The notes under the pieces are model-generated. The model saw nothing but the letters and a program-made list of their open reading frames with translations, did no database searches and had not been told where the DNA came from. DNA of 64,000 nucleotides, from IMG/VR virus record IMGVR_UViG_3300027819_000006, one strand, 5' to 3'. The DNA is from a virus (Duplodnaviria > Caudoviricetes). How positions within the stretch are numbered: position 1 is the stretch's first letter; the number at the start of each line of letters is the position of its first letter. The position numbers and the translations under genes are program-made. This document shows positions 510 through 44,689 of this stretch, piece by piece.

Positions 510-1694
510 TTAATTTTCTTTGACAGAGAGATTATAGACTCCTCTGTGCAGAATGTTTAGAGCAGCATTGAAATCTGCATCTAAACTTAGACAGCAATTC
601 AGACATAAAAATTGTTCATTCTTCCTATTTTTTTTATCTCTGAATCCACATGTAGAACAAGTTTGAGATGTATAGAAAGAAGAAACTTTCTTCAATTCTA
701 TACCCTGTTCTTGACACAGCATTTCAAATTTTGAAATAACACTTGGATAAGACCAATATTGCAACTTACTATTCATTTTTTTGCTATATTTTGATTTATG
801 CTTTACTTGTTGTAAATCTTCCAAGATGACAGTAGAAACATTTTTTAAATCAATGGAGTTGCAAATTTCGTTGATTTTATTGTTTTTGAAAGTAAGATAT
901 TGTTTATAGTTTTTAGAGCCTCTCTTCATATTTGATAGTATAGTATACATTTGTTTCATTTCTTGACCATAGACATCATTATTTGAAGAAACTATAAGTT
1001 TATTGTAACCTATATCAAAAGCAATGGAATCATGTTTTTCTTTCATCTCTACTTCTTTTTCATATGAAAATATAATATAAAAATTGTCATTTATTTTCTT
1101 TAACTGCACAGTTTTCTTTCTATTCCAGTCTTTATATTTTAAAGATTGCTTATGCCACTTTATTGGAAGATTAATTTGAATTGCTTTCTTTTTATCAGAA
1201 TAAAAATGAGGCAATTTCAGTCCTATAAACTCATTAAAATGAATAGAAGAATTTTCATAGCTGAGTAATCTGTCATCAATATTAATAGAAATATTCTTAA
1301 TGTCTATTTTGCAAATTTTTATAGCATCTTTCAATTTCAAATCTTTAAATCTTTTGTTCAGAAATTTCAGCTGTCTATTTCTTTTGATAAAGTATTTGTA
1401 GCACTTCTTATATTTTTTATATCTTTTATCTAGACAGTATTCTATATTAGATCTGACAATCTCAGAAGCTTGTTTATAGACAATTTGTCTCCACTGAGAA
1501 TGATGAATTTTGTTAATAGGAAGAATCTTAGAAGACAAATTCTTATTTAATTCTAATTTTTGAGATAAAATAAGCTCTATATAAAATTTGACGTCTATTT
1601 CATAATCTTCAAATAGTTGTTCTAAATATTTAATTTTATTTAAATTAGAAAATTTTAAAATATGTCTACTACTTCTTATCAAGATCAATCTCAC
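510..1694 (-). CDS. tnpB: TnpB-family RNA-guided endonuclease (IS200/IS605/IS607 type), no TnpA adjacent
   Basis: RuvC-I AFDIG, RuvC-II VILEDL, zinc finger CSTCG...CLNC, RuvC-III DADFNAALNI; 394 aa. Confidence 0.9.
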   Translation of the reverse strand: MRLILIRSSRHILKFSNLNKIKYLEQLFEDYEIDVKFYIELILSQKLELNKNLSSKILPINKIHHSQWRQIVYKQASEIVRSNIEYCLDKRYKKYKKCYKYFIKRNRQLKFLNKRFKDLKLKDAIKICKIDIKNISINIDDRLLSYENSSIHFNEFIGLKLPHFYSDKKKAIQINLPIKWHKQSLKYKDWNRKKTVQLKKINDNFYIIFSYEKEVEMKEKHDSIAFDIGYNKLIVSSNNDVYGQEMKQMYTILSNMKRGSKNYKQYLTFKNNKINEICNSIDLKNVSTVILEDLQQVKHKSKYSKKMNSKLQYWSYPSVISKFEMLCQEQGIELKKVSSFYTSQTCSTCGFRDKKNRKNEQFLCLNCCLSLDADFNAALNILHRGVYNLSVKEN

Positions 1695-1799
1695 AATAAA
1701 AATGCCAAGTATTGAACCTCAAATAGACTATGTCTATAAAGATACTTGGCAAATAGATAACATCTATTTGAGGTTCATATATAAATATATTGTGAGATT
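1687..1799 (-). promoter_or_regulatory. Structured leader upstream of tnpB (interleaved inverted repeats plus start-codon-sequestering arm)
   Basis: Perfect inverted pairs 1703-1712/1742-1751 (10 bp), 1713-1727/1763-1777 (15 bp), 1687-1698/1788-1799 (12 bp, covers the GTG start); AATATATTTAT motif at about 1781-1791. Confidence 0.75.
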
Positions 1800-3109: not shown

Positions 3110-4045
3110 TTACACCTTTTTATTTTTCAACATTTTTCTCAATGTTCTTACCAACTGCTTCCTTGCTTGATTCATTCTTTTGGTCTTTAAATCTCTTCTC
3201 TTCCTACGTATTGGCTTTAATCCTTGAGCAATCCTATCTTCATTGATCTTCTTTCTATTTTCTTCTTTGTCAATTTTCTTCTGTTCTCTGTTCTGTATAT
3301 CAATTAAAACAAGCTTATTTCTCTGTTCTGTAATATAGTCTAATAAATGATTTGATAAATAAGCAGATTTGCAAATTCCAGGAGTATTGCCAAGAAATTC
3401 AGAAGTTTTTGTAACGATCAGTTTTATTTCCTTGCTCAAATCTACTTTTTTAAGAGGAAGCTCTTTATCTTTGATAAAATCTTCATATATGCAGAAAGCT
3501 GTGTAGTTTGCTGCTAATGTTCGAAAATCTTTTGTAGTGAATATTTTGCCTATATTCTTCTTTAAATACTTCTTTATGCTTTTATCTGTGATATTTAGCC
3601 ATAAATCTGTTGATGATTCTTCATAAAATTTATGACCATATTCAATTAAAATTTTATCATCAGAAGTTATAAATTGGCTTACAACTTTTTTTCCTACAAA
3701 ATCTAGTATGATATGATTGTCATAAAATAGAATATGTTCCTTTTTCAGAGTAGAAGCTCCAAAAGTTTGAACAAATTCGCCTTCATGTCCTTTAACTACC
3801 GCTGTATAACCTTCAGCTGAGCCCTCATTTCCCACACGAATTCCGGTTTTGCAGAGTAGATATATAGCATATGCTTCTTTTGATCCAGTTTTAATATCTT
3901 CTACAATCTCGGGTTCAATTTTTGTCCAAACTTCAGCAAGCTTGTTTACTCTATTAAATTTAGAAGCTTTCTTATCCTTCTGCTTAATTCTATTGCTTTT
4001 AGAGAAAAATTCTACCTCTCTACCATTGAATATCAGTTTTGACAT
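3110..4045 (-). CDS. DNA topoisomerase IB (bacterial/viral type)
   Basis: TGIRVGNE, DFVGKK, KDFRT, LGNTPGICKSAY catalytic-region motifs. Confidence 0.9.
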   Translation of the reverse strand: MSKLIFNGREVEFFSKSNRIKQKDKKASKFNRVNKLAEVWTKIEPEIVEDIKTGSKEAYAIYLLCKTGIRVGNEGSAEGYTAVVKGHEGEFVQTFGASTLKKEHILFYDNHIILDFVGKKVVSQFITSDDKILIEYGHKFYEESSTDLWLNITDKSIKKYLKKNIGKIFTTKDFRTLAANYTAFCIYEDFIKDKELPLKKVDLSKEIKLIVTKTSEFLGNTPGICKSAYLSNHLLDYITEQRNKLVLIDIQNREQKKIDKEENRKKINEDRIAQGLKPIRRKRRDLKTKRMNQARKQLVRTLRKMLKNKKV

Positions 4046-4098
4046 TTTTCTCTCTATTTAATAATAACACATTGTTTATGATTAAATATAAACAAATA

Positions 4099-5247: not shown

Positions 5248-5260
5248 TACCTCTCCAAAA

Positions 5261-5370
5261 AAAAATTGTCTATAGTAGCACCCTAATAGACTGAAGTCAG
5301 AAGGCTATAGACAATTTTTCAAATATATTTATGTTTTGTCTATTAGTGTGCTTATAATAAATATATTTGA
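5261..5370 (-). promoter_or_regulatory. Structured leader upstream of endonuclease 4099..5247
   Basis: Inverted pairs 5261-5275/5305-5319 (15/15) and 5277-5291/5338-5352 (14/15); 17-mer ataataaatatatttga at 5354-5370. Confidence 0.75.
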
Positions 5371-5603
5371 TCAAGAAATAAATGCATTTGACCTATCCCT
5401 GTCTCTGCCATTAGCAGATATCCATATCCCTCTTTTGAACCAGCTTCTATATCTTTAATTATCTTTGGTTCAATAGTTCCCCAGTCTCTAGCAATTTTTC
5501 CTACACGTACAAACTTTGCAATTTTCTTGTCTTTTTGCTTTATTCTACCATTTGGATCAGAGAAGAATACTGCTGGCCTATTTTCGTAAGTGAAGTTGAT
5601 CAT
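5352..5603 (-). pseudogene. Truncated 5' paralogue of topoisomerase IB
   Basis: Aligns to the N-terminal ~70 aa of 3110..4045 (FFS, RIKQKDKK, IEP, GSKE, TGI) and diverges exactly where the catalytic Arg (TGI|R) would be. Confidence 0.8.
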
Positions 5604-27109: not shown

Positions 27110-27973
27110 TTAGCAAATTATACGCCAAACTATATCTATTTCGTCTTCCCAGATGCGAATTAGTCTATAACCATTATCTTCAGCTATTCTATTTTTTCTA
27201 TTATCATTATCAATCTTTCCCTTTTGCCATTCATTTACAGGTCCATTAACATATATTCTAGGATTACAGTGATAATAGTTACCATCAACTTCTATTAACA
27301 TGTTATATTCTGGAATATAAAAATCAAAATAAGATTTATTTAAATAAAACTGACTCTTATACTCTATATTTAAACTATCTAAAATCTTAGCTATTTTTAT
27401 TTCAGGTTTACTTATTCTATATTTAAGACATTTTTCATTTCTATTTTTATTTCTTGCAATCCACATTTCTTCTGCTTTTTCAAGACCATGTTTTTCTATC
27501 CATATATCTTTAAGTGATTTACCATACATGGGATTTTTGCTTCCAGAAACATCTGCATGATTTTCTGACATACTAACAGTTGATTTTTTTATTCTTTCAT
27601 CAGTTTCTTTAGTTAAGCCTTTATTCCATGTTATTATAGATCCTTGTTCAAGCCTTTCTATTCGTGTTTCAGATATTTTATTACATGATTCGATAGAATG
27701 TTTTCTACCATACATGGGATTATTTTCACCCTTTGCTAAACCTTTTTCTATTCTAGTTTTAGATATTTTAGCTTTAGTTTCTTCAGATGCTTTTCTCCCT
27801 TTCAACTTTCCTGAATTTTTACATTTATGACATTTTCTATTCAGCCCAGTAACTTCGTTCAAGCAATTTGTCGCAGCACATTTATATTTGATATATTCTA
27901 TGCATTCTTGACATATTCCAGATTTATTTCTATTGCCTAATTCATTAATACCACAAATATAGCATAATAGCAT
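27110..27973 (-). CDS. Free-standing endonuclease: Cys-rich + NUMOD3-like repeats + Vsr/DUF559-like domain
   Basis: SEETKAKIS...GENNPMYG repeats; SKPE...FDF...LIEVDGNYYH...D..KN..A...GY.LIRIWE. Confidence 0.8.
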   Translation of the reverse strand: MLLCYICGINELGNRNKSGICQECIEYIKYKCAATNCLNEVTGLNRKCHKCKNSGKLKGRKASEETKAKISKTRIEKGLAKGENNPMYGRKHSIESCNKISETRIERLEQGSIITWNKGLTKETDERIKKSTVSMSENHADVSGSKNPMYGKSLKDIWIEKHGLEKAEEMWIARNKNRNEKCLKYRISKPEIKIAKILDSLNIEYKSQFYLNKSYFDFYIPEYNMLIEVDGNYYHCNPRIYVNGPVNEWQKGKIDNDNRKNRIAEDNGYRLIRIWEDEIDIVWRIIC

Positions 27974-27979
27974 TATACA

Positions 27980-28092
27980 TTCTCAAATAAAAAGACTTAC
28001 AGTGTGGATAAGAAATAATAGCAAAGCTATTTTCACTGTAAGTCTTTGTAAACTACTATTATTTCTTATCCAATAATAAATATATTTGAGAA
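27980..28092 (-). promoter_or_regulatory. Structured leader upstream of endonuclease 27110..27973
   Basis: Perfect inverted pairs 27991-28004/28034-28047 (14 bp), 28005-28021/28056-28072 (17 bp), 27980-27989/28083-28092 (10 bp, covers the RBS region); 17-mer ataataaatatatttga at 28073-28089. Confidence 0.8.
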
Positions 28093-28105
28093 AATGCAAA
28101 ATGCA

Positions 28106-30484
28106 TTATTTTAGTTTACATTTTATAAAAAATCCCTTATCGATATCTTGTAAATATTCATATTCTAAATTTACTAAATTTAACAAATATTCTATAGCTT
28201 TAGGAGTTGGTAGCCATACGTGCTCTCCCTTACCTATGGTTTGCCATCTCTGCATATGTTCTTGTGCTTCTATGCATCTAAAATTTGGACATCCTATAAA
28301 TAATAGTGAATTTTCATGCATCAAATTTTTACAATTATTTAAGAATTCTAAAGGATTTGTATGCTCTATTACTTGATCAGAAAATAGAATATCAAATTTT
28401 TTATCAGTAAATAGTTCAAAACTACCATATAGAAGCTTGTTTTTTAATTCTGGGAATAATTCTAATCCTTTATCTATGCTGGGCTTATTTATATCTACTC
28501 CTACAGCATCATAGCCTTCTTCTATAGCAGCTTTTACAACCAGTCCGCAGTTAGCTCCAATATCTATAAAAGAACCTGAATTTTTGTACTGCTTAGCTTT
28601 CAAAACATTGGGTTTAGAATGATTATTAAAAACTTCTTGCCATCTAAAACTATATTCATCAGATATATTCTTCTCTTGATCTATATGTATATTGTAATCA
28701 TTTTTCTGTATGAAATCTAATTCCTCATTTACATAGTATTGACTTCCTGGAATATTAAAATAGAATTTAGATTTTTTGCTATTATCTATCATTAGCTTAG
28801 GTTTTTCTAAGAATTTATCAATAGCTGCTATAACATGCTCTGGTTCGATGCTAGACATGCATATAAATTGACTAGTGTTTACGCATTTTGGAATAAAAGT
28901 TAATCCACCATTGTCTAACAAGTTAAAAAATTGTGAATGTTTGCATGAAATGCATTCTAGAGCATTATTCTGTATATAGTATATATATTCTCTGTTAGCA
29001 TTGCTTAAATAAGTAGAAGCTGCTCCATTGATAGCGATAGAGGGAATATTAAATGATCTTGCTATATGAATTGGACCATTATCTCCACCTAAGAAAAATT
29101 CGCTATGTTTAATTAGAGATAATAGTGTTTTTAAATCGACTTTATGATACTTGCTGTCTGTCAATTCAGAAAAATCAGATAGACCAGGCTCTATTACTTT
29201 ATGACCTTTTTTTTGTAAATATTCTATTATAGATTTATATTTAGCTTGTCCTAAAGTTTTTCCTCCCCACCCGCTACCATCTGCTACTACCACAACATAG
29301 GGTTTTAAATGAGAAAAATCTTCATATAGATGATTACTATTATCTAGTTCAGCATATTTATCTTTTGGATTATTAAACGTTATATCTGCTGTTCTAGCAT
29401 AGGAATCAATGAATAATTTATTTTTTGAGCTCTCATATGATAGATCGAGAGAGATTTTTAACTGATGATTAGTATTGTTTAAATGATCTTCTAATATTAA
29501 TTTGTCATCTATTTTTACTATTTCATCGGGCTTATGAGCAAAATATTCTACTATTTCAGGTTTAGCTGTATAGAAAGTAATTTTGCATCCTTCATATTTT
29601 TGTCTTAATTTCTTTACTATCGGCTCACATAGCAATATATCTCCAATACCAACTACACGAGAAATTCCAATGTCAACTATTCCAGATGTCTGTTTTAGTA
29701 TATCTAATATTCTATTATTGTGTTCTGTAAATGCAGCATTTCCCATCAGAGTTGGAAATGTTCTCTTTATTTCTATATCATCATCTTTTTCTATAATTTC
29801 TTCTTTAATGTCTACAGATTTAGGTGCTCCAATTTGCTTAGCTATATCTTCCAAAGACATCTGCTGTTTTCCACCACCAAATTTGACCCATTGAACAACA
29901 GTAATTTCTGCTGGTATGCAACCTCTATATCCTTTTTCTGCCCATTGCTTCAGTACAAGCCCAGGCATGAATAGAGGCTGTCCATCTTTTACTTCTACAC
30001 ATTTATTCCAGTCTACTTCTACATCTTTGAAATGACAGATTTCATCTAAACATATTTCTTCTATTTTTGGAGGATTTGATATTCTGAAACCAATTGTATT
30101 CAGAGGATGATCTGGAATATCTACATTTCTATATTCGCAATGTCCAAGAGCATATTTACAGTGCTTATTATTTGCAAAATCTTCTAAATGTGCAGCTATA
30201 TGTCTTGGAAACCACATTATGTTATTGACAGTCTTGTAAAAAATAATATCAGCAGAAGCTAACTTAAGTGCCTCATTGAATAGAGAGACACTCTCGTCAG
30301 TTTTAATAAATCTTATATTTAGAGATATTTCTTTACACTTCTCTTTAACAGTATCTAAATCTCTTATAGAAGACACAATTAAATCTATATTTTTATGAGT
30401 CTGTTCAAACACATTCTTGATAGAGTTTTGAACATGTATGTCATCTGAATTTTCAGCTATTAATATGACGGTTACTAAATCCAA
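28106..30484 (-). CDS. Three-domain enzyme: GT2-like + GT9-like + class I methyltransferase
   Basis: N-terminal VTVIL...S...FNEAL; middle GIGDILL...LRQKY, FFLGGDNGP.HIA; C-terminal IDIGANCG, GVDI, FDI...VIEH. Confidence 0.7.
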   Translation of the reverse strand: MDLVTVILIAENSDDIHVQNSIKNVFEQTHKNIDLIVSSIRDLDTVKEKCKEISLNIRFIKTDESVSLFNEALKLASADIIFYKTVNNIMWFPRHIAAHLEDFANNKHCKYALGHCEYRNVDIPDHPLNTIGFRISNPPKIEEICLDEICHFKDVEVDWNKCVEVKDGQPLFMPGLVLKQWAEKGYRGCIPAEITVVQWVKFGGGKQQMSLEDIAKQIGAPKSVDIKEEIIEKDDDIEIKRTFPTLMGNAAFTEHNNRILDILKQTSGIVDIGISRVVGIGDILLCEPIVKKLRQKYEGCKITFYTAKPEIVEYFAHKPDEIVKIDDKLILEDHLNNTNHQLKISLDLSYESSKNKLFIDSYARTADITFNNPKDKYAELDNSNHLYEDFSHLKPYVVVVADGSGWGGKTLGQAKYKSIIEYLQKKGHKVIEPGLSDFSELTDSKYHKVDLKTLLSLIKHSEFFLGGDNGPIHIARSFNIPSIAINGAASTYLSNANREYIYYIQNNALECISCKHSQFFNLLDNGGLTFIPKCVNTSQFICMSSIEPEHVIAAIDKFLEKPKLMIDNSKKSKFYFNIPGSQYYVNEELDFIQKNDYNIHIDQEKNISDEYSFRWQEVFNNHSKPNVLKAKQYKNSGSFIDIGANCGLVVKAAIEEGYDAVGVDINKPSIDKGLELFPELKNKLLYGSFELFTDKKFDILFSDQVIEHTNPLEFLNNCKNLMHENSLLFIGCPNFRCIEAQEHMQRWQTIGKGEHVWLPTPKAIEYLLNLVNLEYEYLQDIDKGFFIKCKLK

Positions 30485-34235: not shown

Positions 34236-35037
34236 TTATTTCACCATTATACCAAATTTCTATAAATTTACATTTAAGAAAATTTTTTATTTCATTTTTT
34301 CTTGTTTTATCTTTTTCAATTGCATATTCATGTCTTTTTTCATAGTATTCTATAACAATATTTTTTTCTTTATCATATCCATCTACAAAATATCCTAATT
34401 CTTTTATATGAAATTCTCCACCGTTCATTCCATGCTGAAAATTATAGTTATACTGCTTACCATATTCATCAATAATTTCACAAGCTTTGGGACTGAATAT
34501 AGGAAATACTTTACCTATTTTTTCTAAAAATGCTATAGCTTTTATTTTTTTTTTAATTTTAGTTTCGTCAGATTGTTTAAATTTCATTCCTTTGTTCCAA
34601 GCTATTTGTCCCTTATGAGCTTTACTATTTTTCAATCTGTGTTCTTTAGTTTGAACTCTGCCTGTCATAGCTTTCGATCTTTTAATATTGGATTCTTCCG
34701 AATTCCAAACTTCATTATTATTTTTTCTACTTCTAATTCTTTTATTGTTTCTTTCTAAATCTTTTTTATAATTTTTCTTATTTCCTTCACTTATATTCTT
34801 TTTATGCTCTTCTGTTTGAGGACTCGATTTTCTTTTCTTACCTTATTGTCTACAACCATCTCTATTTCCTATTTTTGAACAACTTCTACATAATGTTGAA
34901 AAAACATTAATTGTATTGTTACACAAATCATTACTACATTTCTTTGTATTAATTCTATGTTTACCACAATACTCTATACCCCTCTTTTCTGAATTTATAT
35001 TTATTTTTTTATTACAATTTTCAGTTTTACATTTCAT
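34225..35037 (-). pseudogene. Endonuclease (Cys-rich + NUMOD3-like + PD-(D/E)xK-like) interrupted by one in-frame TAA at 34843-34845
   Basis: ORFs 34843..35037 and 34225..34668 are in the same frame; the 58 codons between them are open (GKKRKSSPQTEEHKKNISEG...); C-terminal FVDGYD...VIEYYE..H. Confidence 0.8.
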
Positions 35038-35055
35038 GGTGTTTCTCTAAATTAA

Positions 35056-35150
35056 AATTGCTAAGTATTGGATCTTAAAAGACTATATGTCTAAAGATGC
35101 TTAGCAATTAGAATTTAAGTCTTTTAAGATCCAATAATAAATATAACTGA
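35056..35150 (-). promoter_or_regulatory. Structured leader upstream of endonuclease 34225..35037
   Basis: Perfect inverted pairs 35056-35065/35100-35109 (10 bp) and 35066-35084/35118-35136 (19 bp); ataataaatataactga at 35134-35150. Confidence 0.75.
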
Positions 35151-35286
35151 ATATAAAAAAAACAAAATTGACACTATTGAAGCTCCTTTATAGATATTTC
35201 TCAATAAATTCTCTACTGTTAAACCACTTTTCATGAAAATTGTTATTTTAGTAATCTGGATTATATCAAATTTAGAGAACCATTCC

Positions 35287-43591: not shown

Positions 43592-44689
43592 TTAACTTCC
43601 ACTCGCAGAAACTGTTAGCTGAAAAACACCGCGGGCACCACTTTGCAGACCTACACAGTCTACTAAAACAGTTCCAGAATTTCCCAAAGCTGTTTTCATT
43701 TGAAATGTAGCTATACCTTGTGAATTTTGTTGTACTTTAGAATTCACCAGTGTTGCTATACTTGTATCTCTAGATATTCCAGCATATCCAGACACATCTG
43801 TTCCATTTGTAGTTTCTACTGTAAAAGAGACTGTGTCTCCATATTTTACTGTAGCTATAGAGGGCTTTATAGATAATACAGACACTTTTAGAGAACCTTT
43901 AGGCAAAGTTATCAGACGGTATCTTTGAGCTATGTCAGGATTTGATGTAGGCTCAAGAATAGGCAAATTCAGAATATTTATGTCTGGATTCGATGGGTTG
44001 CTGACATCGTATAACTGATAATTTATTTCCACTTATTCTGGTTGTCACCAACCAGGTTAGACTATATCTTCATATTATTACTTCTAATATGCTCTGCTTT
44101 TCGATCTATTTTATAAGATCTACTCTACTCTGTGAATATTTTATTATTCCATTTCGATAGTCGTTGAGCTGACTTCATTTTACAGAAGATTAGTTGCTGG
44201 TTGACTCTAATTAAATATTTTTAAGCATTCACATTCATTATTTCTAATCATGTTGTAGCTATTTAATTTTAGCAAGCTATTCCAACAATTAACAGAGTTT
44301 ATAGACGACTCAATAATTTATCTTACAGGATCGTCCCCGAACGAAAATTTTGTAATTTTAAAACTGCCATCGTTCTTGGCAAGCAATTCTCTTCCTTTGG
44401 TCGTTAAAATGCAATCTATGATCGCCGAATTGTTAACTTATAGTTATAATTCCTATAAGACCGGACTATTTCTTCAACTGGTATATGTTTCAGTTGCTCG
44501 GGGCTTTATGAGATATTATTAGTAAGATTCTTCAATCTCTAGTCTCTGCACCTTTCTATATACTTATTATCTATTCTATAGAGTAGGCTCAAGATTGGCA
44601 TTTCAGCTTTCCTTGAGTTTACCGAGTTTTTCATTATATATCGCTATATAAGCTACCTATGATCAAGTAGATGAATCAAGATATGCCAC
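43592..44689 (-). CDS. Spliced virion structural gene (exons 44666-44689, 44330-44425, 43592-44029; 185 aa)
   Basis: RBS aaggag + GTG at 44689; the joined exons read MAYLDSST|AIIDCILTTKGRELLAKNDGSFKITKFSFGDD|EINYQLYD..., with all junctions on codon boundaries. Confidence 0.85.
44030..44329 (-). ncRNA. Group I intron (300 nt, ORF-less; IA/IB-like core)
   Basis: P1 GACGAU/GUCGUC with U.G at the 5' splice site; R UCAACGACUA (44158-44167); S AAGAUAUAGUCU (44059-44070); P9 CUGGUUG-GUGA-CAACCAG; terminal G at 44030. Confidence 0.9.
44426..44665 (-). ncRNA. Group I intron (240 nt, ORF-less; IC3/tRNA-Leu-like core)
   Basis: P1 CUACU/GGUAG with U.G; P AAACUCAAGGAAA; Q AAUCUUGAGC; R GCAGAGACUAG; S AAGAAAUAGUCC; P3 CUCGG/CCGAG; terminal G at 44426. 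Confidence 0.88.

Follow-up and report, generated by a model that had tools for sequence, protein, structure and literature searches.

Interleaved alternative hairpins in the leader of a homing-type nuclease gene of an uncultured groundwater phage: a candidate elaboration of T4-style translational control

The locus and the stems of its leader

The DNA discussed here is a 64-kb stretch (the window, meaning the whole stretch that was analyzed) of an uncultured phage from groundwater. It has a G+C content of 29.5%, all of its genes are carried on the minus strand, and its content includes baseplate genes and two group I introns. The introns score above the Rfam gathering score (44038-44355, 63.7 bits; 44442-44676, 50.8 bits) and lie on the minus strand just upstream of the ORF 43592-44032. 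The leader under study occupies the 132-nt gap that separates a glycosyltransferase fusion gene from a nuclease gene, and the features of this region are listed below in the order of the coding strand.

28106..30484, minus strand: upstream gene, a fusion of glycosyltransferase family 9 and methyltransferase, 792 aa (Pfam Glyco_transf_9 1.8e-7, Methyltransf_23 3.8e-9)
28059..28106, minus strand: 15-codon upstream ORF MHFAFSQIYLLLDKK; starts at an ATG that overlaps the upstream gene's stop (TAATG) and extends across C, the motif and most of the A 5' arm
28083..28104, minus strand: anti-RBS/anti-start arm, which is C (28083-28092) extended; in the minimum free energy (MFE) pair list it pairs with 27970-27989 on read-through RNA
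28092-28083 with 27989-27980, minus strand: stem C, 10 bp, perfect
28073..28084, minus strand: 12-mer TATATTTATTAT, promoter-like, with a -10-like TATTAT (28078-28073) and a -35-like TTTGCA (28100-28095)
28056..28072, minus strand: 5' arm of stem A; begins right after the 12-mer and forms 17 perfect bp with 28021-28005
28034..28050, minus strand: 5' arm of stem B, within the A loop; 14 bp perfect, 17 nt at 94%
28005..28021, minus strand: 3' arm of stem A (A'), within the B loop; the A-only hairpin is predicted at -18.7 kcal/mol
27988..28004, minus strand: 3' arm of stem B (B'), adjoining A' with a gap of 0 nt; the B-only hairpin is predicted at -17.1 kcal/mol
27970..27989, minus strand: translation initiation region, with C* (27989-27980), the GAGA RBS (27984-27981) and the ATG (27973-27971)
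27110..27973, minus strand: nuclease of the free-standing homing type, 287 aa, with NUMOD3 and a Vsr/DUF559-like PD-(D/E)XK C-terminal part (Pfam, PHROG)

In Pfam the nuclease matches NUMOD3 (4.9e-10) and, weakly, DUF559 and Vsr, and it matches the homing/HNH endonuclease families of PHROG at 7e-17. The presence of a nuclease domain and a DNA-binding module outside any intron or intein context marks the gene as a putative free-standing homing endonuclease gene. No relative of the nuclease above 41% identity was found, and the 41% match is to a paralogue that this phage also carries. For the upstream glycosyltransferase, viral and metagenome contigs yielded no relatives, and the DNA search of known phages returned a sole match of 56 nt that is chance-like. 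A terminator scan found no terminator-like sites between the upstream gene and the leader, and the transcript of the upstream gene would read through into the leader.

A preliminary description of this DNA reported three perfect stems (A, 17 bp; B, 14 bp; C, 10 bp), and every coordinate and length that it gave is correct. As it had also reported, C* covers the GAGA sequence, 7-16 nt ahead of the ATG, and C overlaps the AT motif TCAAATATATTTATTAT (28089-28073). It was wrong to call the stems nested, as the coding-strand order is C, A, B, A', B', C* and A and B interleave. The perfect core of stem B (14 bp, 28047-28034 with 28004-27991) extends to 17 nt with one mismatch (28050-28034 with 28004-27988). 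The 3' end of B' enters the T-rich tract TTTTTATTT (27993-27985), and UUUUUAUUU ends B four nt ahead of the RBS.

Since A and B are interleaved and the gap between A' and B' is 0 nt, the three stems cannot all form together. The compatible sets are C with A or C with B, and C:C* encloses either hairpin. When the long RNA was folded with one hairpin forced, the outer helix was kept in both cases (-46.0 kcal/mol with A and -42.8 kcal/mol with B). An H-type pseudoknot holding both helices was considered and rejected: the junction after A' is 0 nt, the A-B spacing is 5-8 nt, and the helices are 17 and 14-17 bp long. This geometry makes an A+B pseudoknot appear unfeasible and suggests that A and B are alternatives.

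The chance of such stems had been called very low without being computed, and the calculation bears this out. A perfect stem of at least 14 bp was found in none of 20,000 dinucleotide-preserving shuffles of the 113 nt, in which the longest stem was 13 bp, a stem of at least 10 bp occurred in 2.1%, and two such stems occurred in 0.025%. The MFE z-score of the leader is -7.7. Across the 64-kb window there are six perfect stems of at least 14 bp (span of up to 110 nt), all of them within four nuclease leaders, as compared with a mean of 0.085 in shuffled windows. Further copies of the A and B arms were not found within the window, so that a role as operator or target-site mimic is not supported. 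The search of Rfam returned no leader family (the best leader match scored 20 bits versus gathering scores of at least 43 bits), and the contigs of four groundwater DNA sequencing runs showed no variant of leader 27980-28092. The element is a real, selected RNA leader.

Sister leaders and the conserved 12-mer

Six leaders of the same design, including the one at 27980-28092, were found in ~105 kb of the 272-kb phage. The genes behind them encode a TnpB, four NUMOD3 nucleases, and a zinc-ribbon protein. The five sister leaders are as follows.

1690..1799, minus strand: leader of the TnpB gene, with the same order C, A, B, A', B', C*
5248..5391, minus strand: leader (copy 5247) of a 382-aa NUMOD3 nuclease, which shares 35 nt at 80% identity with the 27980-28092 copy, upstream of A
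35038..35279, minus strand: leader (copy 35037) of a NUMOD3 nuclease with an in-frame TAA; main part 35038-35150, distant C arm 35279-35269
L082:14355: leader with a NUMOD3 gene behind it
L083:17692: leader with a zinc-ribbon protein gene behind it

The common plan consists of a 12-mer resembling TATATTTATWAT, followed at -3 to +7 nt by the start of the A 5' arm, and then B, A', and B', with gaps of 8-18 nt and 12-15 nt and a gap of 0 nt between A' and B' in five of the six copies. At the 3' end of the plan, a T-rich run after B' is followed by a purine-rich RBS. The arms themselves are no more alike between copies (0.55 and 0.51) than random AT-rich 16-mers are (0.53), yet each pairs perfectly with its own partner. 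The six copies thus keep pairing, order, spacing, strand, and RBS position with unrelated sequences, which argues for selection on the RNA fold. The TnpB leader and copy 35037 (11 bp, 35279-35269) likewise have an anti-RBS arm on the upstream side of the motif; an arm of this C type is absent in copy 5247. Where the arm is present, it always lies upstream of the -10-like hexamer. On long RNA the start region is predicted to be clearly occluded in four of the six leaders (27980-28092, the TnpB copy, copy 35037, and L082:14355). The predicted occlusion is weak in copy 5247 and in L083:17692, and the long/short contrast of the latter is also weak.

Several observations were made on copy 35037. 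Its nuclease gene contains an in-frame TAA (34843-34845, minus strand) after 64 codons, and the leader stems of 19 and 10 bp are still perfect. In the assembly of one groundwater run, contigs are interrupted within the leader, at 35069-35144, and a second contig carries a related leader copy with seven substitutions and one deletion. Further paralogous leaders are therefore present elsewhere in the genome. Beyond this phage, 80 IMG/VR loci with distant nuclease homologues (476 kb) contained no long interleaved stems, from which it follows that the leader is not a feature of that nuclease family. A scan of IMG/VR with the motif gave 37 matches, none of which has long interleaved stems after it.

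The 12-mer was examined as a candidate promoter. The exact sequence TATATTTATWAT has five matches on the coding strand and none on the other strand (85 kb), and all five lie no more than 130 nt upstream of nuclease genes. In a sigma-70 scan, the TTTGCA, 16-nt spacer, and TATTAT of leader 27980-28092 match at 9 of 12 positions. The final six bases of the 12-mer are a perfect TATAAT in two copies; the -35 region matches poorly and shows no conservation across the leaders. The 12-mer lies directly 3' of, and overlaps, the 5' strand of the outer helix. The sequence suggests a possible promoter function, and the 12-mer could have another role. Transcription starting ~7 nt past TATTAT would begin inside the A 5' arm, and with TATATT as the -10 element the start would be the first base of A. 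Under either assignment the anti-RBS arm would be excluded from the transcript of the cassette.

Other promoter-like sequences were also surveyed. The T4-type sequence TATAAATA is absent from the leader, and its 15 coding-strand occurrences in the window are not clearly placed ahead of gene starts. Visual inspection of the regions upstream of 43 genes revealed no general promoter consensus. At L082:3540-3620, ahead of a TnsA-like nuclease gene, the same 12-mer (TATATTTATAAT) is preceded by a simple hairpin and a T-run, and no interleaved stems follow it; TTTGCTTTT, which lies upstream of the motif, is similar to a T4 MotA box, and its spacing is about right. At 4046-4098 of the window (minus strand), upstream of the gene 3110-4045, there is a GTTTACA, a 16-nt spacer, and a TATATT, which we take to resemble T4 early promoters. 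This resemblance suggests that host-sigma promoters of this phage differ from the leader motif. A 206-aa protein encoded at L082:334-954 has a weak Sigma70_r2 match and is possibly a gp55-like phage sigma factor; such a protein could be the recognizer of the -10-only motif.

Predicted folding of long and short transcripts and its interpretation

The preliminary description proposed that C:C* hides the RBS and that only read-through RNA from the upstream operon can form this helix. Folding of long and short transcripts agrees with this in silico: the RBS is hidden on read-through RNA and is open when the upstream arm is missing. On read-through RNA, the predicted probabilities of A and C are 0.99 and 0.90, and the RBS and AUG are unpaired with probabilities of 0.02 and 0.00-0.02, respectively. 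The outer helix of the MFE structure joins 28104-28083 to 27970-27989 through 19 bp in three blocks, includes the AUG, and spans -16 to +4 relative to the start. For transcripts with 5' ends at or after 28080 the RBS is predicted to be unpaired at 0.45-0.94. With the 5' end at 28080-28071, A is retained and the value is 0.45-0.60; with the 5' end at 28069 or further in, B forms (P 0.92) and the value is 0.94. The predicted flip from A to B occurs when A loses its first 3-4 nt or more, and trimming of A by 4, 6, and 8 nt changes its stability from -18.7 to -9.7, -7.0, and -2.5 kcal/mol. That C:C* could form on read-through RNA only is what these models suggest.

The same contrast was computed for the other genes of the window. 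Over -14 to +3, the unpaired probability of leader 27980-28092 is 0.09 (long) versus 0.64 (short). In 55 control genes the long value is 0.45 +/- 0.14 with a minimum of 0.18, and the difference between short and long is 0.04 +/- 0.10 with a maximum of 0.35. The leader is predicted to lie outside the range of these genes in the long/short contrast. The long-RNA accessibility varies with the amount of upstream RNA that is included (0.09 at -230 and 0.22 at -300), and this dependence of the model counts against the main reading given below.

With moderate confidence, we favor the reading that this is T4-style control, in which the gene is silent on operon RNA and translated from its own promoter, extended by a bistable A/B element. 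The element would probably move together with its free-standing homing-type nuclease gene, as the 5' leader of that gene, and act as RNA. On read-through RNA, the folding indicates that the 22 nt at 28104-28083 would pair with the RBS and AUG (27989-27970), and this long-range helix would be held by whichever internal hairpin, A or B, has formed. On full-length RNA, hairpin A would normally form, since transcription reaches A' ahead of B' and A has a slight advantage in stability. It would clamp the long-range helix and pre-empt B, and operon transcription would continue to the downstream genes. With the RBS and AUG paired, the nuclease would not be translated from operon RNA. The 12-mer, between the anti-RBS arm and stem A, may be the cassette's own promoter; RNA initiated there would lack the anti-RBS arm, so that the RBS would be open and the nuclease would be made.

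The remaining steps of the favored reading are more speculative. If transcription starts ~7 nt past TATTAT, A might lose its advantage and hairpin B might form, the form in which the RBS is predicted to be most exposed. As a conjecture, B could stabilize the 5' end of the RNA, or it could be a weak terminator of a fraction of the cassette transcripts, which would limit nuclease output and protect the downstream genes from the cassette promoter. The role of the A/B element is uncertain. Exposure of the RBS needs no two hairpins, and this point stands against the main reading, as the model leaves the conserved A/B interleaving not fully explained. A stronger version, which we regard as doubtful, is that of a swapped-halves switch in which the contiguous A'B' strand (31-34 nt) is complemented by A and then B in the wrong order, senses the 5' end of the RNA, and is portable with selfish nuclease cassettes including TnpB. 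Under such a switch, operon RNA would adopt A and C and be antiterminated, untranslated, and harmless to the host phage. RNA from the cassette promoter, starting inside A, would adopt B with an open RBS, and a weak terminator would cap the output.

The short upstream ORF bears on two of the alternatives. The anti-RBS arm (28104-28083) is wholly within this ORF (28106-28059). Upstream ORFs whose ATG overlaps the upstream stop are also found at L082:14220 and, as an ATGA overlap, in copy 35037. Translational coupling is pervasive in this phage: at 22 of 57 long ORFs an ATG overlaps the ORF's own stop (ATGA or TAATG), and 15 of these ATGs start the next long gene. Short ORFs with such an overlap are present at 7 of the 42 uncoupled junctions in the window, and the overlap of the leader ORF is weakly above this background. 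The significance of the 15-codon ORF is weak. If it were translated, ribosomes would open C and A on read-through RNA, reversing the prediction that this RNA is silent. The ORF MHFAFSQIYLLLDKK is homologous to the last 12 codons (MHLFLDQIYLL*) of an 83-aa ORF ahead of the 5247 leader (5352-5603, minus strand), because both leaders share the 35 nt at 80% identity. It was also observed that an AATGCAT box shared by these two copies is complementary to AATGC(A) at both nuclease start codons.

It is unlikely that the leader is primarily a transcription attenuator, in which B:B' and the U-run would be an intrinsic terminator, A:A' would be the antiterminator, and RBS pairing would be secondary. Exclusion would then be by topology and not by shared bases, and the choice would be set by the 5' end of the RNA or by ribosomes on the short upstream ORF. 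This idea draws on the five or more T residues directly after B' in four of the six copies (UUUUUAUUU in the 27980-28092 copy, U9 in copy 5247, UUUUUAUU in the TnpB copy, and UUUUUAUUUU in L082), on the near-isoenergetic A and B, and on the earlier synthesis of A' than of B', by which full-length RNA should escape termination. The upstream ORFs at the 27980-28092 copy and L082:14220 also fit, since their ATGs overlap a stop and they end in or just after the A 5' arm, but this overlap exceeds the background given above only weakly. The B loop is 29-34 nt long, the terminator scan found no sites, and the U-runs are weak in copies 35037 and L083:17692. Promoter transcripts that start inside A would, moreover, all tend to terminate, and no productive mRNA would be left. 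Coupling itself could be the purpose of the design, with the RBS masked by a segment inside a short ORF that is coupled to the upstream gene (TAATG); ribosomes leaving the glycosyltransferase gene would re-initiate and melt C and A, and the nuclease would be on in translated operon RNA. The location of the anti-RBS arm inside the ORF and the phage's usual stop/start overlap (15 of 57 long ORFs) agree with such a relay, as do coupled short ORFs in copy 35037, where the C arm is covered, and in L082, where the motif and A are. We consider it improbable, as the short ORFs vary in frame, length, and peptide among copies, the TnpB copy and L083 have no coupled short ORF, chance ORFs of 9-18 codons are common in this phage DNA, and the conserved 12-mer is left without a role.

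The remaining alternatives dispense with a promoter or with RNA altogether. An RNase E-type cut in the AU-rich, single-stranded 12-mer, or an RNase III-type cut of the stems, could free the RBS from the anti-RBS arm. The position of the AU-rich motif between helices and the unusual length of the perfect stems (14-19 bp) are compatible with processing, and RNase E processing has been reported for the T4 segB and segG and Aeh1 mobE transcripts (PMC2988022). The motif, however, shows strict conservation of both sequence and strand, and its last six bases form a -10-like TATWAT. These properties are a better fit to DNA recognition than to the loose preference of RNase E, and we give processing a small chance. 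Explanations at the DNA level or neutral ones (protein operators, a cruciform or recombination structure, terminal inverted repeats of a small mobile element, or replication-slippage palindromes) appear very unlikely. Inverted repeats read identically on DNA, the operator bound by I-TevI overlaps the I-TevI promoter (PMC2988022), and C and C* resemble 10-bp terminal inverted repeats flanking a 113-bp unit, but pairing, order, spacing, strand, and RBS position are kept in six sequence-unrelated copies and the arms have no other copies in the window. A MITE with C and C* as terminal repeats was rejected, as no target-site duplication is visible at 27980-28092 and C overlaps the conserved motif.

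Comparison with known systems

In the long-range coupling of RNA phages, as between the coat and replicase genes of MS2, a translatable frame far upstream contains a segment that pairs with the downstream start and masks it. The leader is similar in that its start is predicted to be masked by a distant upstream segment in such a frame, and it differs in that the frame is a 15-codon ORF of doubtful reality whose peptide is not conserved among the copies.

Attenuators and the expression platforms of riboswitches also contain two alternative helices, one of which has a U-run after it, shortly ahead of the regulated gene, and in both cases the helix that is made first can pre-empt the second. In the leader, the alternatives share no nucleotides, and exclusion arises from contiguous A' and B' with A and B in swapped order. 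The terminator-like loop of the leader is ~30 nt, and no ligand, tRNA, or protein sensor is evident. Two standard assignments were rejected on these grounds. A standard intrinsic terminator has a G+C-rich stem, a loop of 3-8 nt, and a U-run; here the U-run TTTTTATTT is present, but the loop is 29 nt and the scan gave no sites. A classical antiterminator shares bases with the 5' arm of the terminator, and A and B share none, their exclusion being topological.

The closest comparison is with T4. For I-TevI, I-TevII, I-TevIII, segB, Aeh1 mobE, and the genes e, soc, and 49, a helix sequesters the RBS on RNA initiated upstream, and a promoter in or next to the DNA of the 5' strand of the helix yields transcripts that lack that strand and are translated (PMC2988022, PMC3014915). 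Like these systems, the leader belongs to a selfish nuclease gene inside a co-oriented phage operon, its RBS and AUG are predicted to be paired on upstream-initiated RNA, and it has a promoter-like element in or next to the 5'-strand DNA whose own transcripts would lack the 5' strand. T4 uses one simple hairpin, whereas in the leader the strands lie ~90 nt apart (93 nt), with two hairpins between them that are long (14-19 bp), interleaved, and mutually exclusive. The leader carries TATATTTATWAT in place of the gp55-type late motif TATAAATA of T4, and several unrelated nuclease types of this one genome, TnpB included, are served by the same design.

Selfish nuclease genes need to be expressed without harm to the host operon. 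The answer found in T4 is one hairpin and a late promoter, and this phage shows a modular and more elaborate answer that is reused before at least six different genes with fully diverged stems. Stems that diverge and keep their pairing amount to natural covariation, which is evidence that the leader is a structured element not yet catalogued. The design is also of use in annotation, as a marker of nuclease cassettes and of their likely promoters in uncultured jumbo phages. If the A/B element truly reads the 5' end of the transcript, it would be a compact, ligand-free, promoter-dependent RNA switch, and such a switch, which would respond to the promoter that the RNA came from and not to a ligand, would represent a new class of RNA device, of interest to mobile-element biology and synthetic biology. 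By analogy, the best-supported reading is that the leader elaborates the control known from T4 and that its addition is a bistable A/B element between the two strands.
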